Shown here in pieces: positions 2,695-60,180 of a DNA stretch of 64,000 nucleotides (position 1 is the stretch's first letter; the number at the start of each line of letters is the position of its first letter). Under the pieces are notes generated by a model, which was given only the letters and a program-made list of their open reading frames with translations, was not told the DNA's origin and did not search any database. Source of the stretch: an uncultured Parachlamydiaceae bacterium (GTDB taxonomy: Bacteria; Chlamydiota; Chlamydiia; Chlamydiales; Parachlamydiaceae); the NCBI GenBank assembly GCA_963752155.1, contig CAVVXH010000008.1, positions 32,001 to 96,000 of the forward strand, written 5' to 3'. The translations under genes and the position numbers were made by a program.

Positions 2695-4647
2695 ATGCAA
2701 GTGAAGGTGACTCTTAGGATGAGAAATATTATGATAAACTACACAAGACTTCTGATTGCTGTACTTATTTTAGCTTTGTTTGGAGTCGCATGTTCTTCGC
2801 AAAACATTTCTAACAGTAAAGCGCCTGCTCAGTCAATCGAAGAGTTGCAAATACAACTTGAAAATATACTTAAAGAAATGCAGGTACCAGGCATGGCTGT
2901 TGCAATTGTAAATCGAAATGGCCCCGAATGGATATCTGGCTTGGGCAAAGCTGATTTAGCCAATGATCGACCTGTAAACGCATCAACTCTATTCCGTATA
3001 GGGTCGGTGTCTAAGAGCTTCATCTCCCTTGCTGTCCTTAAGCTAGTTTATGAAGGCAAACTTTCACTTGAAGATCCTGTGCAAGAACTCGTACCAGAAG
3101 TTTGGTTTGGCAATAAGTGGGAGGCGAGCGAGCCAATACGTATAGTCCATCTCTTGGAAAACACTACCGGTTGGGATGACATGCATTTGCGTGAGTTTGC
3201 CAAAGACCCTTTAACAATGTCCTCTTTTGAGACGCTTGATTATGACCACAGCTCTCGAATCTCCCGCTGGTGTCCTGGTACACGCATGTCTTATTGTAAC
3301 TCCGGACCAGCCGTTGCAGCTTATATAGTGGAAAAGATTACTGGCAAGAATTTCGAAGAATATATCGAGCAGAGTTTTTTCAAGCTTATTGGAATGCAGA
3401 CAGCGACATACTTTCAACCGATTTCGGAATTAGCTACAGTACTTTATCATAGCGACGGAAAAATGCCCCTCCCTTACTGGAACTTACTTTACCGTCCTAT
3501 CGGCTCTATCAATGTTAGCGCCAATGACATGGCGAATTATCTTCTGTTTTATCTTAATCGCGGCAAGATACATGGCACACAAGTTATACCAGCCACTATT
3601 TTTAATCGGATGGAAGTTCCTACTAGCACTTGGGCTGCCAAAGAAGGATTGCAGGCGGGATATGGTTTAAGTAATTATTGTACCACCTACGATGGTTTTC
3701 TGTATCATGGGCATGATGGGAATGTTCCAGGGGGACTTACTGCCATGGCATACATGCCTAAAGAAGGCATTGGTTATTTTTATAGCCTTAACTCTGGCAA
3801 TCGAGAGGCTTTTAAGAACGTCGGAACGGTCATTCGTGCATATGTCACACGTCAATTAGAAAAACCATCTCTTCCCTCAGCGTTTTCTCTTTCTGAGACA
3901 ACCTATGCATATAGCGGTTGGTATGAGCCCAATTCGTCTCGCATGGAATTTTTTTCTTTTCTAGAACGTTTGATTGGCATGTCTTATATTCATTTTAAAG
4001 ACAACACGCTCCTTGTTGATTCTCTTAGCGAAAGAAATGCAATATTTCTTCCTGTCACTGATACTCAGTTTCGTTATGTGCCTTTAAATGAATCTCAAGA
4101 TGTAGAACCGATACTTAAGTTGCTTAAGCCGAACCTTGAAGGGCAATTTATCCAAATTAACTGGGGGCTAAGAAACGCATTCTTAGATGTTACTCTGAAA
4201 CGTATCCCTACATGGCTTGCAATCTTTGAGATTATCACTGCTGGATTTGTTTTACTAGCTCTTACCTCAACTCTTCTTTTTGCGCCCTTTTGGATTTTTC
4301 AAATTCTGAGTAAAAAGCATCGCTATCTTGCTGAACGTAGCATATTGTTATGGCCACTGATCGCAGTATTGAGCCTGTTAAGTATTGTTGTCGTATGCAT
4401 GTTGTCTAATATGGATGTTGCTATCGAGCGTCTGGGAAATTTGACCATTTGGTCTTTTGCCTTATTTTTAGCAACCATCGTTTTTTGTGCAGCATCAATT
4501 GCAAGCGTTATCGCTTTGTGGCGAACTCCTAAACATGAAGTTCGTGGGATTGTCCACTTATATTCGACAATGCTTTCTATTGCTCTAGTGATAACTACAG
4601 TTTATTTTGCATACTGGGGCATTATTGGTTTACGTACTTGGGCATGA
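2695..4647 (+). CDS. Serine hydrolase (beta-lactamase class C-like) with C-terminal membrane helices
   Basis: FRIGSVSKS (SxxK), YCN (YxN) and HGHDG motifs; lipobox-like GVAC; 4 hydrophobic C-terminal segments. True start may be a few codons downstream. Confidence 0.85.
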   Translation: MQVKVTLRMRNIMINYTRLLIAVLILALFGVACSSQNISNSKAPAQSIEELQIQLENILKEMQVPGMAVAIVNRNGPEWISGLGKADLANDRPVNASTLFRIGSVSKSFISLAVLKLVYEGKLSLEDPVQELVPEVWFGNKWEASEPIRIVHLLENTTGWDDMHLREFAKDPLTMSSFETLDYDHSSRISRWCPGTRMSYCNSGPAVAAYIVEKITGKNFEEYIEQSFFKLIGMQTATYFQPISELATVLYHSDGKMPLPYWNLLYRPIGSINVSANDMANYLLFYLNRGKIHGTQVIPATIFNRMEVPTSTWAAKEGLQAGYGLSNYCTTYDGFLYHGHDGNVPGGLTAMAYMPKEGIGYFYSLNSGNREAFKNVGTVIRAYVTRQLEKPSLPSAFSLSETTYAYSGWYEPNSSRMEFFSFLERLIGMSYIHFKDNTLLVDSLSERNAIFLPVTDTQFRYVPLNESQDVEPILKLLKPNLEGQFIQINWGLRNAFLDVTLKRIPTWLAIFEIITAGFVLLALTSTLLFAPFWIFQILSKKHRYLAERSILLWPLIAVLSLLSIVVVCMLSNMDVAIERLGNLTIWSFALFLATIVFCAASIASVIALWRTPKHEVRGIVHLYSTMLSIALVITTVYFAYWGIIGLRTWA

Positions 4648-5163
4648 GCTCAACTGTATGTTGGCCGATTTTCAGAAAGGCTGATTCTAAAACAATGTCG
4701 AAACCAAATAAGCCAAAAAGTAAAAATCAGCAATACTTTACTAATGAGGATTGGCTTCCTCAAATTAGTGAATGGAAAGGATTGAAAACTGCTATAGAAG
4801 TTACTTCAGAAAGGATCATCAATTGGAAGATTCAGTCGTGCACTCAATATTATATCTGTAGTCGAATAGCTTCGGCCAAACAATTTGCGAAATGGATAAG
4901 GGGGCAGTGGTCGATAGAAAATAATCTTCATTGGGTGGCAGATGTTGTATTTCGGGAAGATGATGCCACAAATAGAGTAGGGCATTCAACAGAAAATCTA
5001 ACTCTTGTTAGAAGACTTGTGATGAACATGGTCAACTTATTTGACCCATCTGTAGGATTAGCTGCAGCTAGACGATTTGCAACACATGAACCCGATTATT
5101 TGAAAGGAATGTTGATTAAAGTTTTTAGAAAAAATGTCAAATCTTTTTAGTGGGAACGCCCTG
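4638..5163 (+). mobile_element. ISAs1-family IS remnant (transposase 3' part plus right end)
   Basis: YYICS...IRGQWSIENNLHWVADVVFREDD motif; sequence ends GCCCTG at 5158-5163, the reverse complement of the CAGGG terminus typical of ISAs1; N-terminus missing. Confidence 0.85.
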
Positions 5164-7114: not shown

Positions 7115-7722
7115 AAAAAACATTGATTACTATATTACGCAATCGAATACCTCTGCTGAACAATATCGACAAGCTGCTGATCAACTTGGAACAGTATTAG
7201 CCGTAGAATGTGACGTTCTCTTTCCTAAAGCTACGGTGTTTGTTGATACCCCTCTAGCACATACTCACGGCGTATGCTTTAAACATGAGTCCGTCTTAGT
7301 TCCTATTTTAAGATCAGGCCTTGTTCTTTTGCCGCCATTTATGCGTTTCCACCCAGGAGCAAGCCATAGGTTTCATTGGCACTCGCCGGGATGAAAAAAC
7401 CGCAATCACAGAACTCTACTACACAAAATTGCCGCCATTTAATCATGACAATCCTATCCTCCTGTTAGATCCTATGATTGCCACTGGAGGGAGTGCCGCA
7501 CTGGCAGTCAAAGTTTTGAAAGCAGCTGGTGCGGTAGAAAAACAGATCACTTTGATTGCATTTATAGCTTCTCAGGATGGTATTAATCGCTTCCAAAAAG
7601 AATGCCCAGATGTCGGCTTAGTCATTGCGCAAGTCGATGAAGGACTTGATGAGCAAAAACGCATCATCCCTGGTCTAGGAGACTTTGGTGATCGTTATTT
7701 TGGCACAAACAATAAAATGTAG
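7111..7722 (+). pseudogene. upp: Uracil phosphoribosyltransferase, frameshifted twice
   Basis: MKKTLITILRN / NTSAEQYR...VPILRSG / RRDEKT...LLDPMIATGGS...IIPGLGDFGDRYFGT are spread over different frames (shifts near 7145 and 7363). Confidence 0.85.
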
Positions 7723-7730
7723 TTTTGAAT

Positions 7731-7894
7731 TATAGATCTTTTCACATGACTTCGTAACAAAATTCTAGCAGATTTTGACATAGATTGCAGATGAAGAAAA
7801 CGTGACATACATGGGTGTAGGCGCGTTTTCTTCATCTGCAAGATATGTCAAAAGATGCAGAATTTTGTTACGAAGTCATGTGAAAAGATCTATA
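7731..7894. repeat. 164-bp palindromic element (MITE-like) between convergent upp and ppsA
   Basis: TATAGATCTTTTCACATGACTTCGTAACAAAATTCT ... AGAATTTTGTTACGAAGTCATGTGAAAAGATCTATA, with an inner stem TTGCAGATGAAGAAAACG/CGTTTTCTTCATCTGCAA. Confidence 0.9.
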
Positions 7895-7896
7895 GC

Positions 7897-10311
7897 CTAT
7901 CCTCGTTGCTTTTTTTCGTGTTTAGTAATAATAACAAGCGTCTTTATCACCGCGTCAGGACTTAAACTGATGCTATCAATTCCACAATCCACTAGAAATT
8001 TGGCAAATTCCGGATAAGTCGATGGGGCATCGCCACAAATTCCAATCTTGCGCTTGCGCTTTTTGGCCACACTGATGACATGTTCTATCATCCGAGTGAC
8101 AGCTTCATTTCGTTCATCAAAAATGTCCGCTACTAATTCGCTGTCGCGATCGACTCCTAGAGTCATTTGTGTCAAATCATTGCTTCCAATACTAAAGCCA
8201 TCAAAAATATCACAGAATTTATCGATTAAGACGACATTACTAGGAATCTCGCACATAACATAGACTTCTAACCCATCTTTACCTTGCACAAGGCCATTTT
8301 CTTTCATTACCTTTAAGACTTTTTTGCCCTCTTCAATGGTTCGGCACACAGGGATCATAACCTTCAAATTGACAAGGCCAAATTCTTCTCTAACTTTTTT
8401 AATTGCTTTACATTCCAATGCAAAGCCCTCCTTATAACCGGGACTATAGTACCTGGAGGCCCCACGCCAACCGATCATGGGATTCTCTTCTTTCGGTTCG
8501 AAATACTCTCCACCAATCAGATTTACATATTCATTTGTTTTGAAATCACTGAAACGCAAAATCACATCGCGAAGGTAAAATGCAGCAGCAATGATCGCAA
8601 CACCCATGGAAAGCTTATCGACAAAATATTGTTTTTTATCAGTGTAACCAGCGGTCAATTCATTAATTTTACGCTGTGTTTTCGTGTCTTTAACTTCTTC
8701 AAATTTTACTAGTGCCATTGGATGGATACGGATATATTCAGTAACTATAAATTCTTCACGTGCTAATCCGACTCCATCGTTTGGTAAAAAACTTAATTCG
8801 TAGGCTTTATCAGGATAACCAACATTGATCATTATTTTCGTTTTCGGCTTCGGAACCTTTTGCACATTAATCCTTTCAACCTTGTATTTGAGTAAACCAT
8901 CGTATACTAACCCCTTTTCCCCTTCAGCACAGCTAACAGTAATGTTTTTCCCTGTTTCGATTAATTGAGTAGCATGATTAGTTCCCACAATGCATGGTAG
9001 GCCTAGTTCACGGCTTACAATGGCCGCATGCGATGTCCTTCCTCCTCGGTCTGTCACAATGGCTGAGGCGATGCGCATGATCGGCACCCAATCGGGATCT
9101 GTAATCTCTGTGACTAATATTTCGCCGGCCTTAAATTGTGCAATATCTTTGGCGTCCTTGATAACTCGAGCAGAACCTTGCGCGATCTTACTTCCTACAC
9201 TTTTGCCTTGTACAAGTACCTTGCCTTTTTGAAGTAATCTATATTCTTCAATGATATTTCGATTTCGTTGCGATTGCACCGTTTCAGGACGAGCTTGCAC
9301 AATAAATAGTTCTTGCGTTTGACCGTCTTTTGCCCATTCTAAATCCATTGGAGTCCATCTACCATATTTCGAGCTGTAGTGGTCTTCGACTGCTATGGCC
9401 CACTTAGCGAGTTGCAATGCTTCGGCTTCAGTTAAACAAAACTTTTTTCTATCCTCTTTTGATGTATTGACCTTCTTGACTGGATGTAGCGCATTTTTTG
9501 TATAGACTATCTTGGTTGCTTTTTCGCCAAGACGCTTATCAATCAAAGGTTTGTAACCTTGCTTGAGCGTAGGTTTAAAGACATAAAACTCATCAGGATT
9601 AACCGCTCCCTGGACTAGACTTTCCCCAAGGCCATAACTTCCAGTAATGAAAACGACATCCGGAAAACCGGTCTCCGTATCTAGAGTAAAAATAACACCT
9701 GCAGAAGCTAAATCTGAACGGACCATTTTTTGGACGCCGATAGATAAATAGACTTTGAAATGATCAAACTTGTTCTCATGACGATAGACAATAGCACGAC
9801 TCGTGAACAATGAGGCAAAGCAGCTTTTACATGCATCTAGCAACTGCTGTAGCCCACATATATTGAGAAAAGACTGCTGTTGTCCAGCAAAACTAGCACT
9901 TGGTAAATCTTCCGCAGTAGCTGAAGAACGAACAGCAACATCTGCATTCTCTACCTTGCATAATCAAGATAGTTTGTGGTAGGCATTGGCAATGGCATCT
10001 TGCAATTCGGTAGGAAGCTCACAACCCATGATCAGCTTTCGGGTTTTTTCTCCTGCTTTTTCCAAAGCTTGGGAATCGTGTACATTCAATCCATGTAAAA
10101 CAGCTTTTAGATCGTTGAGAACACCAGCCTTTTCGAGAATATATTTATAGGCATAAGCAGTAATTGCAAATCCTTGAGGAATCTTGACTTTTGTGTTCTT
10201 GCGCATCTCACCTAGCGAAGCATTTTTTCCACCAACTAGTGAAATATCTTCAATGCTAATCTCGTCAAACCAAAGTATGAAAGACTTTTCACGTTCCTTT
10301 TCCTTTTTCAT
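7897..10311 (-). pseudogene. ppsA: Phosphoenolpyruvate synthase with an in-frame TGA at 9964-9966
   Basis: VGGKNASLGEM, then LS*LCKVENADVAVRSSATAEDLP in the same frame, GGRTSHAAIVSRE (phospho-His), GFSIGSNDLTQ. Confidence 0.9.
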
Positions 10312-11159
10312 GATAGTTCCCCGTGTTTTGCTTTTGAGATAATAATACTCCATTCTCTTTCTAAGTTAACTCGGTCATCGGGATGAGCAATACTAATAAG
10401 AGCTGCCGCCCGCTCTTTTAAAGTCCTTCCGAAGAGATCGACAACGCCATATTCAGTAATGACATAATGCACATGAGCTCGAGTTGTTACAACACCTGCA
10501 CCAAGCTTTAATTGCGAAACGATTCGAGGGGCGCCCTTATATGTTCGCGCTGTCAATGCAATAATGGGTTTTCCACCTTTTGAAAGCGCTGCTCCGCACA
10601 TAAAGTCAAGTTGGCCACCAGCTCCTGAAATGATTCTACTTCCTACAGAGTCTGCACAAACTTGGCCTGTTAAATCTACCTCAATAGCTGAGTTAATTGC
10701 AGTCGTCTTCGGATTTTGAGCGATCACACTCGGACGATTAACGAAACCTATATCTAATTGGACCACTGAGGGATTGTCATTGATAAAGTCATAGACCCTC
10801 TGTGTTCCTGTTACAAACCCTGATACCGTTCTACCTGGATAAATGACTTTTTTTGAATTATCTACAACACCAGACTCGATTAAAGCAAGCGCTCCATCAG
10901 ACCACATTTCTGAATGAATGCCTAAATGCTTGTGGTTGATGAGAGAAGCTAGAATGGCATCCGGAACAGCGCCGATTCCAATCTGCAAAGTTGCTTCATC
11001 TTCAATCAGATTAATGAGTTCAGTATTTGTTAAACGTTCAGCTTGAATAAAAAGAGCTGTCAGCAGAGCATGTGGCGTGGCAGCAGCACCATGCACAAAC
11101 ACACGTTGACCTGCGCGAATCACTTCAATTGCTTTTTCAGCCGAGCTCATTTTTTGCAT
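10308..11159 (-). pseudogene. Acetyl-CoA hydrolase/4-hydroxybutyrate CoA-transferase with an in-frame internal deletion
   Basis: N-terminal RVFVHGAAATP joins directly to ATLQIGIGAVP...HSEM...SGAGGQLDF; 283 aa, well short of typical family length (about 430 aa). Confidence 0.75.
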
Positions 11160-11536
11160 TAAGAAAATCCTCCTTTCTCCTTTTCTCTTTGGAAAATTTT
11201 CTTTTTAATTTTTTCTATCTCTTGTTCTTCCATTTCTTCAATGGCAATCAATTCATTTGTAGCTTCTTTAGTTACTCGTATGAGTTCATCTATTTTTAAA
11301 TGAAGTGCTTTACTTTCTCTGTTTTGTGTATTTTGAATGATAAAAACCATTAAAGCCGCATTGAGTGTTGCAATCGTATTAAGAATTAACATCCATGTGT
11401 TATTAAAGCCCAAAAAAAATCCAATGATTAACCACATAGCCACCACAAAGAGCGCCAGCACGAAAGTTATAGGGCTACCCGCCTTTTTAGCTGACCACGA
11501 TAAAAACTTTGAAAGAGGTGGTATTTTGCGTGCCAT
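11159..11536 (-). CDS. Low-affinity iron permease (Fet4-like) family protein
   Basis: MVFIIQNTQNRESKALHLKIDELIR signature. Confidence 0.85.
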   Translation of the reverse strand: MARKIPPLSKFLSWSAKKAGSPITFVLALFVVAMWLIIGFFLGFNNTWMLILNTIATLNAALMVFIIQNTQNRESKALHLKIDELIRVTKEATNELIAIEEMEEQEIEKIKKKIFQREKEKGGFS

Positions 11537-42024: not shown

Positions 42025-43157
42025 AAATACCACCGTTTAAGTTAGAAGAATTCTGGAAGAAATATGAGTTTACATCTCCCTATTTGCTTTGCTGTTCGGA
42101 TGCGGAAACTTGGAGCTTACAGCAACTGCTAGCTCTTGCTGATTCTGAATCTTTGAAGCTTTGGGAGTCATTAGCTCTTGGATACACAGAATCACCAGGA
42201 CATCCTTTGCTTCGGGAACAGATTTCTCATTTGTATGCTTCCTTAAATTCGGATCAAGTTCTTACCTTTGCAGGCGCTGAAGAAGGAATTTATTGTGCAA
42301 TGAGAGTTTTAGTGCAATCTGGAGATCATGTGATTACGATTGATCCCTGTTATCAATCACTTGCCACTCTTCCAGAAACGTTTGGAGCTACAATCACAGC
42401 AATTCAGCTGCATCCTGAAAATCAATGGAAGTTGAATTTAGAAGAGGTTCAAAAAGCATTTCAGCCAAATACCAAGCTTCTTATTCTCAACTATCCTCAT
42501 AATCCAACAGGAGCCCTTCTAGAGAAAAAGATATTGGAAGGCTTAATCGCGCTGGCAAGAAAAAATGGAGCTTATATTTTTTGTGACGAAGTGTACCGAT
42601 ATTTGGAAATAGATGAAAAGGAAAGAATGCCTTCAATTGCCGATGCATATGAAAAAGGAATCTCTCTTAACGTGATGACAAAATCATTTGGCCTAGCCGG
42701 CCTTAGAATCGGCTGGATAGCTACTCGAGATGCGACCTTCTTAAGTGAGGTAGGCTCTTATAAATTGTATACTTCTATCTGTAATAGTGCTCCAAGCGAG
42801 ATTTTAGCTATCATTGCCCTCCGTTCTAAGGAGAAGATTCTTGAGCGTAATCGAGAGATTGTCTTACAAAATCTACAAATCTTAGAGGCATTTGTAAAAC
42901 GGAATCGGCAATATGTATCTTGGATACGTCCTCAGAGTGGAACAATGGCTGTTTTACAGCTTTTGTTACCTGTATCCATTGAAGATTTTGCTGAAGATTT
43001 GGTTCGCTCCGAAGGAGTGTTAATTATGCCCGGTCCTGTATTTGATCTCCCAGGAAACTTTTTTCGCATCGGTTTTGGCAAGAAAAATATGCCTGAAATT
43101 TTGAAACGTTTTGAAACCTATCTTCAATCCCAAGGAGACCGCTATGCAGCATCTTAG
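42021..43157 (+). CDS. PLP-dependent aminotransferase class I/II
   Basis: NYPHNPTG, DEVYR, TKSFGLAGLRIGW. Confidence 0.9.
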   Translation: MKIPPFKLEEFWKKYEFTSPYLLCCSDAETWSLQQLLALADSESLKLWESLALGYTESPGHPLLREQISHLYASLNSDQVLTFAGAEEGIYCAMRVLVQSGDHVITIDPCYQSLATLPETFGATITAIQLHPENQWKLNLEEVQKAFQPNTKLLILNYPHNPTGALLEKKILEGLIALARKNGAYIFCDEVYRYLEIDEKERMPSIADAYEKGISLNVMTKSFGLAGLRIGWIATRDATFLSEVGSYKLYTSICNSAPSEILAIIALRSKEKILERNREIVLQNLQILEAFVKRNRQYVSWIRPQSGTMAVLQLLLPVSIEDFAEDLVRSEGVLIMPGPVFDLPGNFFRIGFGKKNMPEILKRFETYLQSQGDRYAAS

Positions 43158-43169
43158 TAAACAAGCCAG

Positions 43170-43570
43170 TTGTCTACGTTCATAAAGCATAGAGCTGATT
43201 TTCTTGCGTAAAGTTCTGACATTCCATTTTTCTATGCGACACATCTCAGCATAGAAATCACGTTTTAATAGATCTTTGAGTGGAATTAATTCAATAAAAT
43301 GACTCCAGCTCAATTGTCGCATCAGTGTCGCGACAATTTGCTCATCAGGGAAGACTTCTACAAATTGCAACATTCTTCGAAGGCTTTTCTCTGCAAAGCC
43401 TTGTCCAAACTCCATCGCCAATTGTCGCGACACTGTCGCGACAATCTCCTTTCCATAATCTGCACGCTTTTCTTGTAGAATTTCCGAACGGATTCGATAG
43501 CCAATTTTCCAATAAAGAGCGGTAAGACTTGAATTGATTGCAATCGCTATAGATTGACGAGTATTTTCGT
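43170..43570 (-). pseudogene. YhcG/DUF1016 N-terminal fragment
   Basis: LYWKIG...ADYGKEIV...LSWSHF...RDFYAEMCRIEKWNVRTLR. Confidence 0.8.
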
Positions 43571-43752
43571 TCCCATTGTTTGCATACTGTAGGATAACCT
43601 TTAATACGGACAACAGCTCGCCAACCGACGATTTTTCCATTTCGATCTTTACGTTTATAAATAGACATAGCTCAAACCTCATAGGAGTTATAGTTTGAGC
43701 GGTTGGATAATGCTAGTTAAGATTGTTCTTCACTGCACCAAATTTGCACCGC
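43565..43752 (-). pseudogene. Integrase 3 remnant: leader plus first ~35 codons
   Basis: MSIYKRKDRNGKIVGWRAVVRIKGYPTVC (ATG 43668) and its upstream 85 bp are homologous to 52340-52501. Confidence 0.8.
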
Positions 43753-45168: not shown

Positions 45169-45795
45169 CTAACGGCTGTTAGACTTTTTTGCTTTGGTTT
45201 TTTTCGGCTTCTTTTGGCTTTCGAGGACAGTACTTAATTCAGCTTCAAACTGGGGGGTGGGTAATGCCATTTTGAAGTTTGTTATTGCCTTTCCCTCTCT
45301 GTGATACAGGTCATTTTCAATCCAGATTGTGAGCATGCTACGGCTCCAGCCATGCTCTATTGCCTTAGAGGCATACCAAAGACGCTCATCATTATCTTTT
45401 ATTTTTTGAAGAAGTAGGATGTTATGTCCCCAGGGGATGCTAAAAATAGGCAAGGATTCAAATTGTCGCACAGCTTGTGCGACTTTTTCATAAGCGATAA
45501 AAAATGCCTTCATCCTAAACATGTTGGCTCTTGAAAACCCTTCTATCCCAGGGAACTCATTTTGGAGGTCTTTAGCTACTCTTTCCAGCACTTTGCTACC
45601 CCAGCCTTCCCTCTCCTGTTTTTCAATTATATCCTTACCAATCTCCCAATAAAGCTTGATCAATTCACTGTTAACTGCGACTGCTGCCTTGATCTGGGCT
45701 GATCGAATTTTAGCCTTCAGTGATGTGATGAATTTGGTATATTCAGCAGGGGATACATCTCCCTTTTTGATGGCTAGGCTGGACTTTTGAGACAT
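45169..45795 (-). pseudogene. YhcG/DUF1016 family protein lacking the PD-(D/E)xK domain
   Basis: AQIKAAVAVNSELIKLYWEIG...IPWGHN...GWSRSML...GKAITNF...LPTPQ jumps straight to the C-terminal tail. Confidence 0.75.
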
Positions 45796-46153
45796 GAAAA
45801 AACTCTATTAAAAATGAAGCCAATCATAGTTGATGGAAAGCAAAAAATCAAGATAAGGATGCCTGAGGATTTGTCCGAGGATTTTTGATCTTATCTCATT
45901 TCTGGAGATGGAAAAGGGCCACTTATCATTTTGAAATCTGCACGGGATGTCTTTTGTAAATTGATGCCAGTTCTCTGAGAGTTTTTTGTGCTTTAGCACC
46001 TTCTAAAGCTAATTTTGATGCAGCTCCATATTTTTTTTTCTTATCGTCGCTTGACAATCACAATTTTTATACAGCACTTTTTGAAGCATAAGAGTTAACC
46101 CAAGTTTTAGCGTGTTTTTACTAAAAGCAACTAAAAAAAAGGAGAAAACACAG

Positions 46154-47120: not shown

Positions 47121-48167
47121 TTAAGAAGGTCTGCGTTTCTTCGGGCTTTTCTTAGGACTGTTCGAGTCAATTTGTTTAACTTCCTTAATAGCCTCGATAA
47201 AGTGCCTCTCAACAGGAGACGGAAGTTCGTTTAATTGCTGCCGGTATTTAGCGTATTCAGCCTTTGCCTTATCAAGAGCATTTTGATGGCTAATTTTACC
47301 TGCATGAGTGAGAATATCACGGTCACTGGTGCGGAGAAAATCATCTAGCTTGACAATCCAGTCTTTCATATACATAGGTTTTCGACTTAAAGCTTGTAGC
47401 TCTGCAAAATCGAGATACATGGCAACAATTAGATTAAGAGTTTCAAGTTCATTGTTGTTTAAATAATTTTTTGCAATTCCAATATCTGGGACACGTAAAT
47501 TATTGCCTGTCCAAGAGGTGAGTCCCATATTCGGCTTTGTAGAGTCTGCTCGAGTGTGGATAATTTCAGCCGCAGTATGCCCGTGAGCAGCCCAGTGCAT
47601 CTTGTTTTGTACAATGGCAAAAAACTCCTCAGACAAATCTGAACGTGGATTGTAATCAATACTTGTAGCATAAATATCAAGAACCTTTCGCCAAAAGACT
47701 TTTTCTGACGAACGGATGTCTCTAATGCGTGCCAATAGCTCATCAAAATAATTACCACCACCAGATTGCTTTAATCGCTCATCATCTAAAACAAATCCTT
47801 TGATAAGGTATTCTTTCAATCGTTGAGTGGCCCAAATGCGAAATTTGGTGCCTCTATGAGAGCTGACTCTGTATCCTACGGAGATGATCACATCTAAGTT
47901 ATAAAAGTCTATTTGCCGTGTGACTTCTCGTGATCCTTCGGCTTGAACTGTCCGGAATTTCCGGATAGTTGAATCTGCAGAGAGTTCCCCTTCGCTAAAG
48001 ATATTTTTTATATGCTCTGAAATCGTTCTCTTATCTTTGTCAAACAGCTCGCTCATTTGAGCTTGACTTAGCCAAACAGTCTCATCAAGAAGACGCACCT
48101 CAACTTTAGTAAGGCCATCTTCGGTTTGATAAAGAATTAGATCACTATCAGGCACGTTAGTTTTCAT
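47121..48167 (-). CDS. Virulence RhuM family protein
   Basis: ETVWLSQAQMSELF, YNLDVIISVGYRV.S.RGTKFRIWAT, YFDELLARIRDIRSSEK. Confidence 0.92.
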   Translation of the reverse strand: MKTNVPDSDLILYQTEDGLTKVEVRLLDETVWLSQAQMSELFDKDKRTISEHIKNIFSEGELSADSTIRKFRTVQAEGSREVTRQIDFYNLDVIISVGYRVSSHRGTKFRIWATQRLKEYLIKGFVLDDERLKQSGGGNYFDELLARIRDIRSSEKVFWRKVLDIYATSIDYNPRSDLSEEFFAIVQNKMHWAAHGHTAAEIIHTRADSTKPNMGLTSWTGNNLRVPDIGIAKNYLNNNELETLNLIVAMYLDFAELQALSRKPMYMKDWIVKLDDFLRTSDRDILTHAGKISHQNALDKAKAEYAKYRQQLNELPSPVERHFIEAIKEVKQIDSNSPKKSPKKRRPS

Positions 48168-50720: not shown

Positions 50721-51354
50721 GGCTACCAACTGAGCGTTAGGTCTGCCTTCTAAAAGCTCTCTTGCCAGTCCTTGGAGGATTTGAGCGACTAGGTGGATAT
50801 CTATAGGGTAGGCTGTAGCAGGCGCAATTCGACTGATTTTTCCTGTATGCTGATCAACTCTCATCTCCTCAGGAAAGATTTCTTCGATAAGGCCTCTTTC
50901 CTCTTGAGACAATTGTTCCCTTAGATAAGCTGTAAAACTTCTAAGAGAGCGTATTTTAGATGATCTGCGACCTTTTTTTCTTTTCATTTCTGACGCTATC
51001 CTTTCTAGGTAAACCTCTAGAGTTTCATTAGAGTAAGGCTTCTGGATAATGCGTTTCATGTAATCTTGGATGTCAAGATTGAGTTCAAGCCATTCCTCAT
51101 AATAGGGCTTAGCCAACTCCTTTGCTGCTTCGACCACAGGAGATGTACGATTAAATTTAGGAAAGTGATCGTATAAATCTGCAAATATCCAACAAAAGAG
51201 CCTCTTTACGAGGCCAAGGATCAATATTATCATCTCCAAACCCAGGTGTTCCTGCTATGCTAAGACCTGACGATTTCCAGATTTCTTCTTTTCGTTTCAT
51301 CTGAGATAAGAAATCTCGGAGAACGTCTTTTAAACGTTCAAGCTGGTTGCTCAT
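50720..51354 (-). pseudogene. Hypothetical protein downstream of the integrase, frameshifted and fused to the primase remnant
   Basis: ORFs 51157-51354 and 50061-51239 overlap in different frames. Confidence 0.4.
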
Positions 51355-52418
51355 TCATTGCCCCGATGTTAAGATTTTCTGTAATGCCCTCAGAGTATTT
51401 TCTAACGAGATCGGCTTCGAGATGGGTATAACGCTGAAGCATTTGTAAAGTACGATGTCCCATTGCTGTTGCAAGCTCAAGGTTAGAAGCACCCTGGCGG
51501 GCTGCCAGAGTGGCAAAGCTGTGTCTAATGTCATGAAAGCGTAGATTAGTGAGTTCTGCTCGCCTAAGAGTTTCTTGCCATGGTTTCTTGATGTCAATTT
51601 CGCCAAATGCCGTTTTGCTGGCAAAGATCACTTTTTTATTGGGTTGCTTGATCTCATGAAGGCGTTTTAATTCCTCAACGACCTCATCAACCAAGGGTAC
51701 ACTTCTTGGTCGGCCATTTTTAGTTTCTTTGAGATGAGCAAGTTGATTCTTAAAGTCATGGTCCCACTTGAGTTGCAAGATTTCTCCTTGCCTCATACCT
51801 GTTGTGATAGCCATCAGAACAATGCAATATAGATAGGGGTTGCGACTCTCTTTGCAGGAAATGATCAGACGAGATGCTTCATCTTCAGAAAGAATGCGAT
51901 CTCTTCCTTTGGATTCTTTGAGCTTGATTAGGTTAAAGCATGGGTTTTCATCTATCCAGCGAAGACGGCGACAAGCATAGGTTAAGCAAGAAGATAGAGC
52001 GGCAATATAGCGGTTGACGGTTGCAGATGAACGCTTCTTTCCATTAAGCATTGGCGTTTCCACCAAAAGCTGCCGTTCCTTAGAAAGAAGCTCAGGTGTA
52101 AGATGGACAAGCGCATAGCCAGCAAGTCGCTCTTTCCAGTAATTCATATGACGAATAGCGTCTTTTTTTGCTCGCAAATGCTCTAATGCGCCATCAGAAA
52201 TATAGCGTTGAACAAGATCAGCAAAAGTGCGATGGGTGTTGACTCTTTCAAACTTGAACTGTCCCATCTTGATCTGGCGTTCAACTTCTTGTGCCCAATC
52301 TTCAGCTTCTTGTTTGCGATCCAAATGATTGCAGACTGTAGGGATAGCCTTTGATACGGACAACTGCTCGCCAGTGACTAGTTCCGTTCTTATTTTTACG
52401 CTTTTGTATAGAAGCCAT
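51338..52418 (-). CDS. Tyrosine recombinase/integrase 1 (+1 frameshift at 52341-52343)
   Basis: TGMRQGEI (R), ETKNG (K), FHDIRH (HxxR), MGH, RYTH; true N-terminus MASIQKRKNKNGTSHWRAVVRIKGYP is in another frame; gene starts about 150 bp from the tRNA 3' end. Confidence 0.9.
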
Positions 52419-52570
52419 TGCTCAAACCTCATGTGTTAATGGTTCGAGCGGCTGGATGGTGTGTGTTAAGATTGTTTTTCGTTGCACCGCCATTGCACCG
52501 CAAGCCAAATTTTAGCTTGAACAATATTATTGAATCAAGCTAAATCCTGCTCACAGCTAATGGAAAAAAG

Positions 52571-52644
52571 TGGGGCAACTTGGACTTGAACCAAGGACCA
52601 GCGGGTTATGAGTCCGCTGCTCTAACCGACTGAGCTATTGCCCC
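52571..52644 (-). tRNA. tRNA with CAT anticodon (probably tRNA-Ile2; elongator Met not excluded)
   Basis: GGGGCAATAGCTCAGTCGGTTAGAGCAGCGGACTCATAACCCGCTGGTCCTTGGTTCAAGTCCAAGTTGCCCCA cloverleaf; G1-C72 paired, so not an initiator. Confidence 0.93.
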
Positions 52645-52810: not shown

Positions 52811-52883
52811 TGCACCGAAGAGGGCTCGAACCTCCAACCACCCGGTTCGAAGCCGGGTACTCTATCCATTGAGCTATCGGTGC
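52811..52883 (-). tRNA. tRNA-Arg(TCG)
   Basis: GCACCGATAGCTCAATGGATAGAGTACCCGGCTTCGAACCGGGTGGTTGGAGGTTCGAGCCCTCTTCGGTGCA. Confidence 0.93.
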
Positions 52884-52999: not shown

Positions 53000-55219
53000 T
53001 TAAATAGGATGGCTTTTTAAATTACTTTGAAGGAGTTTAAGCAAATAATCATATTCAGCTGCTGCTTTTTGCATCTCTCGTTCTACCGACGAGACCCCAT
53101 CGTCCATTAGCCAAAATGATTTCCTTGGCATAGGCTTGAAGGTTGTTTAAGGTCAAGCGTACACGATAATAAAGCTTCTTCCATATTAGGAAAACTTAGA
53201 GCTATATTGAGTAACCATGAACATTTCGCTTCTTCACTACGTTGTAAACGAAAAAGATCAAAATAATAACCCGCCGGACTTTCCAGATCTGAAATTAGAA
53301 AACGCTCCGAGTAGGATTGAGTTCCATGAACATCAATCATCTCACAAGCTACTTTCATCTGCGATTCTCGCCTTTTCTTCAGAATACCATTCCTGCACCA
53401 CGATGCGCTCTTGCCCCTCAACATAACTTTCATATTGCTCGAATTCCTCAGCAGGAACCAATTCATGATCAACTTCAGCAAGGTAATGTCCTCTTTGCCG
53501 CTGAATTTTGAAAAGGAGTTGCCCGTAACCACAATCAGCGTTCATTAAAAGTACACTATTTTTCCACGAAAATCCATCCGCAAAGCAATTAAGATCTTCA
53601 ACACTAAAATTCCTTTCAGGACGCCGCGTTTGTGCAACTATATATCCTCCAGAAGTTTGCACTAAGAAAATATCTAACAGTTTCGAAGGTCCCACATTTT
53701 TACCCAAAACTTCTTGTAACCAACGATACGTGACGCGATCAAATGCGTTTGGATCCAATGTTGTCAGAACCCAAAAAATTAATTGCCGCGGAGGCATCCC
53801 ATTTTTCAGCCCCAAAGTAACGGTAAACCATTTTTCACGTGCTTGAATAGAATTAAAAACATCTGCTAATGATTTAGCTCCCACTAAATGCGCACATAAA
53901 AGCATAAATAAAATATCAGTCAATTTATGAGGTTTTTGTCCTTGTAACCCTTGGCGCCCCCCTCCTTTAGAATCACGCTCAGTTTTAACTTTAATGAGAT
54001 CCGGTAACATTAATGCAAGCCATGGCGGGACAAAATTTCTAGAATCGTTTTCAACGGCTTGAAACAATTTATGATGTGCTGTAGGAACAGATTCATCTGA
54101 TTGTGTCCTAATGAAAGGGGCTAGCACAGCGACGTCTTCCGGTCTCTTTAAATCAACGCTATTTTCGTTAAGAATTTGTTCTCTTCGAAGGTCATCGGGA
54201 ATTTCTTTCTCATTTTCGATAGTAGAATCCTCACCTTTAGGCACTTCTTTAATTCCAACTGTGGCATCAGGAGCATTTTCGTCAGTAGAATCGACTTCTT
54301 GAGGCAGTACAACAGAATCGGGATCAGCTTCCGCGGGTTTATTTTGAGCTTCTTGTGAGGTATTTGAGGAAACTATTTGAGATTCAGGCACAGGAATGTT
54401 CTTGTCTACGTTTTGACTTAAATCTGTATTTTGAGGTATTTCAGGAATCTTTTCATTTTTTTGAGAGCTTTCAGAAGTAGGTGTCGAAGGAATACTTTTA
54501 TCCACAACTTGATCTTGCCCATCATTTTGAACCGATGGGTCTATGCCCTCTCCCGTCTGAACCTCATTTGTCTCTGATGATTTTTGATTTTCAGGAACTG
54601 AAGGTTGATCAGGTTTTGCATCAGTAGCTTCAGGAGGAGTCATCTCTGAAGGAGATTGCCCTTCATCTATAGGAAGAATCTCTCCTTCTGTTCCTTCTTT
54701 TGCTGAAGGAACCTCTTTCGACTTCTCATCCCCTTCTTTTTTTACAGGAACAGTTTGATCTGCCTTACCTTTTTCTGGAGATTGTTGCTGCGGATCGTTT
54801 CGCCCCTCTTCGCTTCCATGCACTTCAATACTCACCAGATCCTTTCCAGGAGAACTCCCCTTCGGAGCTGCTTCGTCTCGTCGAGCTCCGCTTTCTACTG
54901 GTGCTTGTACAGGAGGTTTCTCCACGCGGGGTTGCGACTGTTGACTTCGAATAGCTAATACAGCTAGTTCATTTAAGACAGGCTTAAATTTAGTAATTAA
55001 TTCCTTAATTATATTATGTTGAGAGAATTTCTGTATCGACTTTAATCCGGCTAATTTGAGATTCACAGAACCTGGGACAGTTAAAACAGTTCCGGCTAAA
55101 AGATCAATCACTTGCATTTTATCGGGTAAGGCCGCACCTCCTTCCTTAGGAGAAGATAGACTTGATATAGGAACGGCGGAAAAATCGGCAGAACCCGCAC
55201 CGAGAGCTGAACCCATCAT
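53000..55219 (-). CDS. Large acidic low-complexity protein with a C-terminal degenerate ISAs1-transposase-like domain (ORF to 53342; continuation to about 53000 via apparent +1 shifts)
   Basis: HKLTDILFMLLCAHLVGA...LGLKNGMP...LDPNAF...W, then ERFLISDL...SWLLN and EREMQKAAAEYDYLLKLL in downstream frames. Confidence 0.7.
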
Positions 55220-55330
55220 AATATACCACCTTATTTACTTACCCTTACCTTCTTTTCCATTATACAATATTTGTTTATTTTTCCTATTTTTTTCCTTTCA
55301 TTTTATTGCATTTTTATACAATAATATTTT

Positions 55331-55423
55331 ATACTAGGCGCGGCCATAGATTGTATTTTTTTGCTGCGTCAAAGCCCGCGCTCGAACGATCAAAAAAACA
55401 CAATCTATGGCCGCGCCTGGTAT
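55331..55423. repeat. Inverted repeat element upstream of glyA
   Basis: ATACTAGGCGCGGCCATAGATTGT ... ACAATCTATGGCCGCGCCTGGTAT. Confidence 0.8.
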
Positions 55424-55440
55424 ATAACAAGGAGTTCAAT

Positions 55441-56928
55441 ATGGGTAAATTGCTTGAGAACTATTTAGACAAAACTTCAAGAGAGAAGCAAACTTCTAGC
55501 GCCATTGCTTATTTGGCAGCTCTTGATCACTTGGGCGATGTCGCCCCCTCGATTGCTGCAGCAATCATCCAGGAACTTCAAGACCAACGTTCTAATCTGA
55601 AACTTATTGCTTCTGAGAACTATTCTTCATTGGCTGTTCAATTAGCCATGGGGAATTTGTTGACAGATAAATATGCTGAAGGATATCCACAACACCGTTT
55701 TTATGCCGGTTGTGAAAATGTCGACAACATCGAAATCGAAGCCCGCGAGACCCTGAAAAAGCTTTTTGGGGCAGAATGTGCTTATGTACAACCTCACTCT
55801 GGAGCCGACGCCAATTTAGTCGCTTTCTGGGCGATTCTTGTGCACCGAATTCAAAACAAAGAAATCGAAAAATTAGGAAAAAAAGGGATCGACGAACTAA
55901 CTTCAGAGGAATATGAAACAATTCGAAAATTGATGGTCAATCAAAAAATCATGGGAATGTCATTGAATTCTGGAGGACACCTTACCCATGGCTATCGACA
56001 CAATATTTCTTCCAAAATGATGCAAGCTGTCCTATATGATGTTAATCCTGAAACAGAGCTATTAGATTATATTGCATTAGAGAAACAAGTCCAAAAAGAA
56101 CGGCCAGCCATCTTACTCGCCGGCTATTCAGCCTATCCACGTCGTCTCAATTTTGCTAAAATGCGAACAATCGCTGACAGCGTAGGGGCCGTTTTAATGG
56201 TGGATATGGCTCACTTTTCAGGGCTTGTCGCCGGAAAAGTCTTCACCGGAGAATTTGATCCGGTTCCTTATGCCCATCTAGTCACTTCGACGACGCACAA
56301 AACTTTACGTGGTCCTCGTGGTGGATTTATCCTCTGCAAAGAAGAATTTGGAGAAACGATTAATAAAGGATGCCCTCTAGTGCTTGGCGGCCCCCTACCC
56401 CATGTGATTGCTGCTAAAGCGATTGCGTTTAAGGAAGCTAGCACAGATGCATTCAAAACCTATGCTCATTCTGTCGTCGACAATTGTCGTCTATTAGCTC
56501 AAGCTTTAATGGAAAGAGGGGTGCGTTTAGTCACTGGCGGAACAGAAAATCATTTAATGGTGCTCGATTTGACATCTTTCGGCCTCACTGGTCGTCATGC
56601 AGAATCGGCTCTACGAGAAGCCCACCTCACGATAAATCGAAATGCCATTCCTTTTGACATCAATGGCCCTTGGTACACTTCTGGAATACGTATCGGTACT
56701 GCTGCGATAACAACCCTTGGTATGGGGCCGAACGAAATGAGAGAAATCGCTGATGTTCTAGTTGACATTCTTTCAAATACATCCCCTGCACTATCTAAAG
56801 ATGGACAACCGAGCAAAGCAAAATTTCAGACTAACCCAGCAATCTTAAAGAAATCTCAGCGGAGAATCGATGAACTTCTTAAACGCTTTCCCCTCTATAC
56901 TGAACTCTTATTACCAGATTATAAATAG
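55441..56928 (+). CDS. glyA: Serine hydroxymethyltransferase (long chlamydial type)
   Basis: LIASEN, DKYAEGYP, QPHSGADAN, GGHLTHG, TTHKTLRGPRGG; AAGGAG RBS before ATG 55441. Confidence 0.97.
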   Translation: MGKLLENYLDKTSREKQTSSAIAYLAALDHLGDVAPSIAAAIIQELQDQRSNLKLIASENYSSLAVQLAMGNLLTDKYAEGYPQHRFYAGCENVDNIEIEARETLKKLFGAECAYVQPHSGADANLVAFWAILVHRIQNKEIEKLGKKGIDELTSEEYETIRKLMVNQKIMGMSLNSGGHLTHGYRHNISSKMMQAVLYDVNPETELLDYIALEKQVQKERPAILLAGYSAYPRRLNFAKMRTIADSVGAVLMVDMAHFSGLVAGKVFTGEFDPVPYAHLVTSTTHKTLRGPRGGFILCKEEFGETINKGCPLVLGGPLPHVIAAKAIAFKEASTDAFKTYAHSVVDNCRLLAQALMERGVRLVTGGTENHLMVLDLTSFGLTGRHAESALREAHLTINRNAIPFDINGPWYTSGIRIGTAAITTLGMGPNEMREIADVLVDILSNTSPALSKDGQPSKAKFQTNPAILKKSQRRIDELLKRFPLYTELLLPDYK

Positions 56929-58871: not shown

Positions 58872-59106
58872 CATTCCGTTCGCGTCCCCCTTGCGGGACG
58901 TGAACTTCCGCGACAATCACTGTTCTAGACTGGGCTTCCAATTCTTAGGTTTCCTCTTTAAAAGGAAGAATATACAAATTGTACTTTATCTCAAAAAATA
59001 ATACAATTAAACTAAGTTTTGCAAATTTCTATTGAGTTACAGTTTTGCCATTGCTGCTTTTGACCTCAACAAAATTTGCCCATCGCTTCAATAAAAGGAA
59101 TCAAAT

Positions 59107-60180
59107 ATGGATATCTCAGACCCTCTTATTTACAATAAAAATCACTCATCCGGTTTATGGTCTAACTCCACTATAGGTCAATCCACCCTAAGGATATCAG
59201 AAATTTTCATCACTACAGTGATACTTAGTGCAACAGGATGTTCTATAGAAGGATGGATGCAGCATAGCCTGCCTGACGTAGTATATTATACCAGCTATGG
59301 AATCATTGTCGCTGCTATTGGTTGCTTATTTGCCAGCTGTTTCTGCTGCGCATCTACAACAGAAACAGAATTTCGGGAATCATTTGTCGAATTAATTGAA
59401 CCAAAGAAAGTAAAAAAACTAGGACTGAGTTCCCAAGTTCACCAGTTGTGTGAAATGGATATTGAAGGAGCTTATCTCTCCTGTAATTTGCAGCAGATGG
59501 TTGCAATAACGAATGAATGGAAAGAAAAAAAATTACTCCACATCCTCAACACAATTCCTTCCTATTTTATCTCAAATTCATACCAGAAAAGTGCTTATGA
59601 TATAGCGACACCTCTTCATACACCATTGATGCATTGGGCCAGCAAGGGCAACTTGGAGGCAGTGAAGATCTTGTGCACGCACGGCGCTGCAGACAATTGT
59701 TATCCATATAAGTTGATGGCTGGTGTAGTCACAAGTGCACTTTATGTAGCTGCCATTGAAGGGCATTCTGCTGCTGTTGATTATTTATTAAAGCAAGGAG
59801 CAACTCCTACGGTACAATTTAACCATAATGTCTTGTTCAGTTTTGTTCCTTATTTTGTATTTGCAATCTATCACAACGATAAGATTAATCACCAAAATCT
59901 TGATTGTTTAGCAAAGATTCTATCTCATTTAGAAAAAAACGCTCCAAATGATCTAAAAAATCAATTGCAAGTCCCCGTGAGTAAAAAGCAAAACTGCATT
60001 GCTTATATGGTTGAAGCTCATCAAAAACCACAAAATCATAACCTATTAGTTACAATGCTAAAGCAGTTTGGTGGGTCTGAAAACAAGGTGTTTTCAATCG
60101 ATGAATTAGAAAAATTAGGGTGCAATATCGGCACAGGCTGTACGTTAGTGGAACAAGCTAGTTTGAAAGAGCTTTTCTAA
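59107..60180 (+). CDS. Ankyrin repeat protein with an N-terminal hydrophobic hairpin
   Basis: TPLMHWASKGNLEAVKILCTHGA; SALYVAAIEGHSAAVDYLLKQGA. Confidence 0.8.
   Translation: MDISDPLIYNKNHSSGLWSNSTIGQSTLRISEIFITTVILSATGCSIEGWMQHSLPDVVYYTSYGIIVAAIGCLFASCFCCASTTETEFRESFVELIEPKKVKKLGLSSQVHQLCEMDIEGAYLSCNLQQMVAITNEWKEKKLLHILNTIPSYFISNSYQKSAYDIATPLHTPLMHWASKGNLEAVKILCTHGAADNCYPYKLMAGVVTSALYVAAIEGHSAAVDYLLKQGATPTVQFNHNVLFSFVPYFVFAIYHNDKINHQNLDCLAKILSHLEKNAPNDLKNQLQVPVSKKQNCIAYMVEAHQKPQNHNLLVTMLKQFGGSENKVFSIDELEKLGCNIGTGCTLVEQASLKELF

Follow-up and report, generated by a model that had tools for sequence, protein, structure and literature searches.

A 64,000-nt stretch of contig CAVVXH010000008.1 from an uncultured Parachlamydiaceae bacterium (hereafter the window) carries on its minus strand, at positions 53000..55219, a gene whose product joins a long, predicted disordered N-terminal arm to what appears to be a degenerate transposase of the ISAs1 group of insertion sequences (IS). 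In the deposited sequence, this gene is read as three pieces (ca. 739 codons if read through), i.e., minus-strand open reading frames (ORFs) at 53342-55219 (625 aa), 53107-53532 (141 aa, overlapping the first in another frame), and 53000-53131 (43 aa). It starts with an ATG at 55219 that is preceded by the Shine-Dalgarno-like sequence AAGGTGG and ends with a TAA stop at 53000-53002. Downstream lies a tRNA-Arg gene (52811-52883), and upstream the divergently transcribed glyA (serine hydroxymethyltransferase; 55306-56928, E 5.9e-122), so that both neighbors named in a preliminary description of this locus were located. A scan for promoters and terminators returned counts no higher than in shuffled sequences.

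The encoded protein can be divided into three parts, all on the minus strand. The N-terminal arm of ca. 415 aa (53975..55219) is acidic and rich in P, E, S, Q, and K, with a net charge of -31 over 409 aa and almost no W, Y, or C. AlphaFold gives aa 1-420 a mean predicted local distance difference test (pLDDT) score of 48.7 (23-row alignment) and predicts helices only at aa 33-46, 69-94, and 399-417, in agreement with the acidic, disordered N-terminus of about 400 aa that had been proposed previously. The arm is followed by a DDE_Tnp_1_assoc helix-turn-helix (HTH) domain (aa 427-501; 53717..53941), which is the best conserved part among homologs of the same architecture (called long forms in the following), and then by a remnant of the RNase H-like DDE core with its C-terminal helices that is devoid of the segment around the first catalytic Asp (53003..53716). 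Every motif quoted in the preliminary description was found in the three ORFs, including HKLTDILF (53906-53929), GLKNGMP (53792-53812), LDPNAF (53741-53758), ERFLISDL (53284-53307), and the C-terminal motif KAAAEYDYLLKLL (53030-53068).

The ancestry of the C-terminal part is apparent from several profile comparisons. The match of aa 427-501 to the Pfam family DDE_Tnp_1_assoc (PF13808) has an E-value of 3.3e-14 and 53.1 bits at a cut-off of 32.3, and the resemblance to transposases is therefore far above chance. Against the NCBIfam ISAs1 model NF033564, the window ORF scores 36.7 bits, which is below the cut-off of 70, and covers positions 1-72 of 314 only; an intact homolog in another genome (G011) passes this model with 92.6 bits at positions 87-298. 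An hhalign comparison of 11 long-form C-terminal domains (C-domains) with 20 true ISAs1 transposases resulted in a probability of 100% and an E-value of 1.8e-61 over 321 columns, i.e., nearly the whole transposase, and the transposase profile match that had been proposed as a check was obtained. Consistently, the ESM Atlas matches considered (of 30 in all, the three highest and, for every additional set of families, the highest one) belong mainly to DDE_Tnp_1 / DDE_Tnp_1_assoc clusters at 0.89-0.90, with one cluster lacking a common Pfam family. Judged from these alignments, the C-terminal ca. 320 aa of the protein are homologous over their full length to ISAs1 transposases.

A search with sequence profiles against the PDB gave nothing below an E-value of 0.14 and hence no relative with a solved structure by sequence, and the fold was approached through an AlphaFold model of the C-domain of a homolog from the same genus (G001; pLDDT 90.1, predicted template modeling score 0.88, 108-row alignment). 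The best structural neighbor of this model is the transposase of Tn5 (PDB entries for this enzyme and its inhibitor protein 1mm8, 1muh, and 1b7e; Z 5.4, root-mean-square deviation 4.5, 139 aa), a weak match that is confined to the RNase H-like core, and it is followed by piggyBac (Z 4.9). Three rows for Argonaute PIWI domains as well as NurA and endonuclease V, which have RNase H-like folds, come further down, mixed with unrelated proteins of similar Z. Such a match at Z of about 5 is consistent with the fold implied by sequence homology and no independent proof of it.

When 73 Parachlamydiaceae genomes were searched, ISAs1-type matches were found in 24 of them and fell into two classes. One comprises ordinary ISAs1 transposases with frames of ca. 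370 to 430 aa that are often present in several or many copies. The other comprises the long forms, with frames of 686 to 766 aa, which occur exactly once per genome in 12 genomes from eight genera and are free of internal stops in 11 of these, the window copy being the exception. In the window's genome, the gene described here is the single PF13808 match. Across the order (301 genomes from 47 families), frames of at least 600 aa were seen in only three genomes, all of them Parachlamydiaceae, and the other 16 genomes with matches have frames of 346 to 423 aa (multicopy in five). When 1.84 billion representative proteins were searched with a profile, 7,998 matches at E <= 0.001 were obtained; among the best 150 of these, 52 are long forms of 642 to 810 aa that align over their C-terminal ca. 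320 residues, and the remainder are almost all transposases of ca. 360 to 450 aa with a few shorter pieces or intermediate lengths. The sole source name found for any long form is "hypothetical protein", and full-text literature searches, with subscription literature outside their scope, retrieved no paper on such a family, which is previously undescribed. In a maximum-likelihood tree, 17 long forms are split from 10 true transposases at a branch with 100/100 support; because of this branch and of a deletion around the first catalytic Asp that the long forms share, the data point to a single origin of the long forms from ISAs1 transposases.

This deletion is a sign that catalysis has been lost. 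Across an alignment of 68 long rows (three duplicates, 65 distinct) and 46 true transposases, the segment of the first catalytic Asp is a gap in every long row (68/68), the second Asp is retained in 20/68, and the catalytic Glu in 53/68. By comparison, the true transposases have the first Asp in 45/46 rows, the second in 45/46, and the Glu in 46/46, with the IDGK, TIDAMGCQ, and HWxIEN motifs present. The window protein conforms to the long forms in that the first-Asp segment is gapped and LMNADC stands in place of TIDAMG (53531..53548), which puts an Asn into the Asp column. At the equivalent of the HWxIEN helix, located in the second frame piece, it reads QRSEEAKCSW (53215..53244). The preliminary description had stated that the catalytic motifs look lost, and this was borne out for the missing IDGK segment, the change of TIDAMG to LMNADC, and the replacement of HWxIEN by RSEEAK, though not for the Glu of the third motif, which is still there. 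A long-form protein would thus be expected to be no longer able to cut or join DNA.

Marks of mobility are missing as well. No inverted repeat brackets the window gene, which like its flanking sequences contains neither CAGGG nor CCCTG, just as the absence of CAGGG ends had been noted before. In contrast, a true ISAs1 element from a related genome has CAGGG-type inverted repeats (20/22 matching) and a 10-bp target duplication. Of four features that characterize active ISAs1 elements, the gene therefore shows the DDE_Tnp_1_assoc domain and lacks the other three, i.e., a score above the cut-off, the catalytic triad, and inverted repeats with multiple copies. In summary, ISAs1 transposases resemble the long forms in their N-terminal HTH, the order of secondary structure elements, and the C-terminal helices, and they differ from them in the absence of an arm of 350 to 480 aa, the presence of the first-Asp segment, CAGGG-type inverted repeats, 10-bp duplications, and multicopy occurrence.

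Two other ISAs1 sequences were noticed along the way. At 4638-5150, the window contains a genuine C-terminal ISAs1 fragment (NF033564 positions 211-314, 101.7 bits) in which the HWxIEN-type motif is intact, as had been stated before. It lies directly against the end of a gene of the beta-lactamase family, and no further ISAs1-like piece besides it and the gene described here was seen in this genome. Genome G048 harbors an ISAs1 variant (L026, L040; ca. 853-2658 in L040) with a 522-aa frame, in which about 100 aa are added N-terminally and the triad is intact, and which is present in at least eight near-identical copies with CAGGG-type inverted repeats and a 10-bp target duplication.

We interpret the gene as a member of a Parachlamydiaceae-restricted family of domesticated, catalytically dead ISAs1 transposases with a disordered arm, a reading to which we assign a probability of roughly 0.78. 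At the level of the family, with its intact single-copy relatives, its shared deletion, and its position in one clade, the earlier proposal holds, according to which a disordered region of about 400 aa is joined to a domesticated, dead ISAs1 transposase. Taken by itself, the window copy with its lost catalytic motifs and frame shifts could be mistaken for an ordinary decaying IS, i.e., a dead ISAs1 copy with a fortuitous frame upstream. This explanation is highly improbable and was rejected on family-level data: there are intact homologs of 686 to 810 aa in 11 other genomes and dozens of library clusters that all have the same deletion, the arm has conserved motifs, six genomes have common synteny around the gene, and the window gene lacks inverted repeats.

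Domestication should leave traces of selection, and indirect support for these comes from the HTH, whose mean pairwise identity is 39.2% among the long forms vs 37.0% among true transposases. Three regions of the former core, on the other hand, reach 22% to 27% among the long forms vs 34% to 46% among true transposases. The preliminary description had suggested selection on a nucleic acid-binding fold, and the pattern of a conserved HTH and a relaxed core in the long forms agrees with it. The long-form HTH has a mean charge of +2.5, and the long-form protein may still recognize DNA through this domain. Ratios of nonsynonymous to synonymous substitutions (dN/dS) were calculated by the Nei-Gojobori method (NG86) for six genome pairs and, where computable, are 0.16 to 0.22 for the C-domain and 0.17 to 0.46 for the arm, away from the value near 1 that had been named as speaking against selection, though as a rough bound with dS saturated.

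Six of the 11 loci with flanking sequence, from five genera, have the long-form gene downstream of and divergent from the same gene for an AAA_5 ATPase, followed further out by the 630-aa partner of this ATPase, SurE, a YitT-family membrane protein, QueG, and a LOG-family gene. Syntenic orthologs, for which the preliminary description had proposed to search, were therefore found in six genomes. It had also placed the gene in the core genome, which is only partly correct for the window copy: this copy borders on an integrase/tRNA island and has no neighbors in common with its same-genus relative. Within 51338-52644, a gene for a tyrosine integrase (Phage_integrase, E 4.8e-30) adjoins a tRNA-Met gene (52570-52644), and because of this arrangement the DNA to its left can be suspected to be an integrated island whose edge lies ca. 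400 nt from the gene studied here.

Several observations weigh against our interpretation. The window copy and the copy in G001 from the same genus have no neighbors in common with the six syntenic genomes or with each other, and the AAA_5 pair of the window's genome is found on another contig. The long form is absent from 61 of the 73 Parachlamydiaceae genomes. Judging from the conservation of the HTH, the long forms probably bind DNA, but their C-domain as a whole is mildly acidic (mean charge -4.8 vs 0.0 in true transposases), which is unusual for a DNA binder, even though the HTH by itself is positively charged. Because dS was saturated in every genome pair (1.7 to 3.9 or not computable), the dN/dS figures are only rough, and the fast evolution of the C-domain (dN 0.37 to 0.61) could also reflect weak constraint. 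The structural matches are weak, with Z around 5, and a Foldseek search of the PDB with the G001 C-domain model found no match at E <= 0.001, its weak rows including the Tn5 structures 1b7e and 1muh. If the frame shifts discussed below are real, finally, the window copy itself would be a pseudogene with a truncated product of 625 aa.

In the same genome pairs, the arm evolves even faster than the C-domain (dN 0.66 to 0.87), and among the neighboring genes the AAA_5 ATPase (dN 0.07 to 0.15), its 630-aa partner (0.17 to 0.28), and SurE (0.26 to 0.32) are slower, with a fourth, unnamed protein (0.40 to 0.49) being as fast as the C-domain. More closely related DNA for such comparisons was not obtained from a genome-contig scan with the window protein nor from metagenome contigs with the protein or the alignment, and a genome-contig scan with a single intact homolog returned only its own record.

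The arm varies greatly across the long forms, from 350 to 480 aa in length, and nonetheless contains short conserved motifs. In the subfamily of the window protein, these are an N-terminal M-T-x-P, a block of the type RDE...DLVxIEV, and VPPWL. The second is represented in the window by RRDEAAPK ... DLVSIEVH (54818..54883), in which D115, E116, and V133 are nearly invariant among 23 subfamily rows, and the third (54017..54031) is kept just ahead of the transposase-derived domain. The extreme N-terminus is polar and Pro-rich, and an ESM Atlas search with the N-terminal arm gave no usable match. We consider that the arm might serve as an interaction module and, with lower likelihood, as a secretion module, and that the DNA bound by the HTH would be either chromosomal targets of the bacterium or DNA of the host.

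The latter possibility, which the preliminary description had raised, amounts to a type III-secreted effector in which the arm would carry the secretion signal and motifs for host interaction and the HTH would bind amoeba DNA, i.e., a nucleomodulin. Disorder is common among the effectors of chlamydiae, and Ehrlichia has acidic, disordered effectors that bind DNA. The long, disordered, fast-evolving arm with its short conserved motifs and polar, Pro-rich N-terminus would suit such a role, as would the absence of any membrane segment or signal peptide (in the window protein, 19-aa hydropathy peaks in the HTH helix) and the presence of a gene for the export gate of the type III secretion system (T3SS) in the window's genome. 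The family also evolves faster than the three neighbors with a recognized family or partner role, if similarly to the fourth, unnamed one. Every one of these features, however, is compatible with a cytoplasmic protein as well, no chaperone-like gene is found beside the long-form genes in the annotated loci, and housekeeping genes surround the long-form gene in six genomes. We regard secretion as an effector as unlikely for this family.

A different kind of target may be considered in view of the DNA directly upstream of the gene. In the intergenic region with glyA, a palindromic element at 55327..55427 has 37-nt arms that are 92% complementary and are separated by a 27-nt loop. It is a shortened copy (98 nt) of a dispersed, near-perfect palindrome of ca. 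160 nt that is found at 14 loci in this genome, all of them intergenic: six at full length (149 to 164 nt), the 98-nt window copy, a 76-nt copy with two arms, and six single arms. In the genomes G001, G074, and G064, the long-form gene is likewise directly preceded by a large palindrome, which belongs to a dispersed family with nine, at least 50, and two loci, respectively. The four repeat families look unrelated to each other and were met in three different genomic contexts; the upstream region is unique in the other seven of the 11 genomes. For the window's genome alone and under a uniform model, the chance of such an adjacency is about 0.007, a value for an association that was noticed post hoc. 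An origin of the palindromes as miniature inverted-repeat transposable elements (MITEs) derived from ISAs1 was provisionally rejected, since their ends are unlike CAGGG-type inverted repeats and seven of 11 genomes have no upstream repeat.

It is conceivable that the long-form protein binds or regulates repeated DNA, either by inhibiting active ISAs1 elements in a dominant-negative manner, like the Tn5 inhibitor protein, or by binding the adjacent palindromes, comparable to the binding of MITE ends by SETMAR. The conserved HTH once recognized the ends of an IS, a dispersed palindrome stands directly upstream in four of 11 genomes and three genomic contexts, and the only genomes with at least seven ISAs1 matches (G048, G049, and G003) are without a long form. 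Conversely, several genomes with a long form have no intact ISAs1 to regulate, most upstream regions (7/11) are unique, and the four unrelated repeat families do not include any that begins with CAGGG. The association is moreover partial, was found post hoc, and comes from related genomes that are not independent; any link between repeat and gene is putative. On balance, repeated DNA is a rather improbable target of the family.

Whether the gene of the window itself is still functional depends on the nature of three +1 shifts, all within its last ca. 115 codons. The first, at approximately 53371..53377, makes the 625-aa ORF run into a stop at 53342-53344; the second is found at approximately 53151..53157; and the third, at 53100..53104 (ca. 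53102), restores the frame of the 625-aa ORF. The three shifts of the preliminary description (near 53370, 53141, and 53104) are accordingly present in the sequence as deposited, at these slightly different positions. The same-genus homolog and five closer intact relatives (723 to 808 aa, 51% to 68% C-domain identity) extend past the end of the 625-aa ORF, and the closer relatives read through all three sites. The ratio of identity after and before the first shift is 0.81 to 1.02 in pairs with the window protein vs 0.88 to 1.04 among the intact relatives.

Similar breaks are common in this assembly. Nine of 28 genes with a good ortholog in the same genus were flagged as broken, and at least six of these are real frame switches; the ribonucleotide reductase small chain and lipoyl synthase turned out to be false alarms in which the query frames had included 5' untranslated sequence. 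One of them is a ClpC-like ATPase in six pieces, of which the best four are 88% to 99% identical to the ortholog; it has 14 internal indels whose lengths are no multiple of three. RNase R is likewise broken by frame switches, phosphoketolase has shifts of +1 and -1 that are separated by 435 nt, the T3SS export gate SctV and one of six nucleotide transporters are split, and so are two of 58 orthologs of more distant relatives. Examples of such split conserved genes are located at C10:261742-264281, C12:19729-21932, C5:194728-197079, C10:589611-591652, and C9:16805-18270. The genome is only 80% complete in spite of 22 large contigs, which together with the many splits by 1-nt indels points to an assembly that had not been polished or else to decay across the genome. 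An altered genetic code was set aside as the source of the in-frame stops, given that the breaks are frame switches and the stop codons mixed.

A damaged run of metabolic genes is also found in the window itself, at 7312-11204. It comprises a uracil phosphoribosyltransferase fragment that covers only positions 89-206 of the profile, a pyruvate phosphate dikinase gene broken by an in-frame TGA at 9964-9966, and an acetyl-CoA hydrolase ORF with a match to the C-terminal domain only. Because of the in-frame TGA, the damage of this assembly is not all of the indel type.

With conserved genes broken across the assembly, the shifts are uninformative on decay of this particular gene. As many conserved genes are broken alike and divergence is no higher in the shifted part than elsewhere in the gene, we somewhat favor base-calling or assembly errors as their cause over recent decay, which retains a sizeable share of the probability. 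Under the latter, the window copy would be a recent pseudogene of the domesticated family in a lineage that is losing the gene, with a 625-aa product deprived of the last core strands and helices. It is indeed the sole long form among 12 with internal stops, the third shift is outside any homopolymer run, other genes of the window are damaged too (including the dikinase with its TGA at 9964-9966 and several fragments), and loss must be common given that 61 of 73 Parachlamydiaceae genomes are without a long form. Assembly error nevertheless accounts better for the breaks in essential or conserved genes such as those for the ClpC-like ATPase, RNase R, SctV, and the nucleotide transporter, and completeness is just 80% in 22 large contigs. 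In addition, the shifted part does not clearly exceed the rest in divergence, and three shifts in the same direction within 275 nt with none in the other 1,940 nt would be odd for random decay. A pseudogene at this locus hence appears possible and is the less probable alternative, and we note that pseudogene calls in this assembly should not be trusted without reads.

Coming back to the domesticated family as a whole, DDE transposase exaptation is well documented in eukaryotes and has rarely been described in bacteria. Domesticated DDE transposases of eukaryotes, such as the piggyBac-derived PiggyMac and Tpb2p, resemble the long forms in being single-copy, immobile, and endowed with a retained DNA-binding domain. 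Several eukaryotic cases differ from them by keeping catalysis; the long forms are bacterial, have lost the triad, and come from one family of obligate intracellular organisms. SETMAR is a single-copy host gene derived from a transposase, and its product binds MITE ends. By analogy, one might think of the long forms as a bacterial counterpart of SETMAR or CENP-B, in which a dead DDE transposase binds specific DNA through its HTH and a fast-evolving arm recruits partners, with chromosomal palindromes or, after type III secretion, amoeba DNA as targets. This picture is speculative and, in its entirety, unlikely to be accurate, though if true it would describe a lineage-specific regulator born from an IS in obligate intracellular bacteria.

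Closer to home, the Tn5 inhibitor protein (Inh) is a variant of a transposase that lacks catalysis and takes effect by binding. It is the truncated product of an active element, however, whereas the long form has a diverged and syntenic gene of its own, to which an arm has been added. Bacterial transposon proteins exapted for host functions include the nuclease-dead, TnpB-derived repressors (TldR) and the REP-associated tyrosine transposases (RAYTs), the latter being single-copy genes beside dispersed palindromic repeats that are still catalytic. Both have other folds and chemistry (RuvC-like and RNA-guided or HUH) than the long forms, and the repeat association of the long forms is limited to four of 11 genomes. 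Compared to these examples, the long forms would make a sizeable case of bacterial exaptation (at least 52 clusters at 50% identity, eight genera) and a consistent one, since they invariably lack the first-Asp segment, retain the DNA-binding domain, and have gained a long disordered arm. They offer a natural example of what selection keeps once an ISAs1 transposase stops transposing and, for chlamydial biology, a concrete candidate, amenable to testing, for a DNA-binding regulator specific to this lineage or a protein directed at the host.

Some further genes are found around the locus. Inside the putative island, ORFs at 43023-43712 and 45172-45804 match the N-terminal domain of DUF1016 only (E 6e-45 and 7e-44). 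Between them lie a gene of the phosphotransferase family and a small gene that encodes a tRNA-binding domain; the two ORFs may be truncated nuclease genes. The island also carries a RhuM-family gene (E 3.9e-117) at 47124-48167. Beyond glyA and clpP, a gene for an ankyrin-repeat protein is located at 59095-60177.

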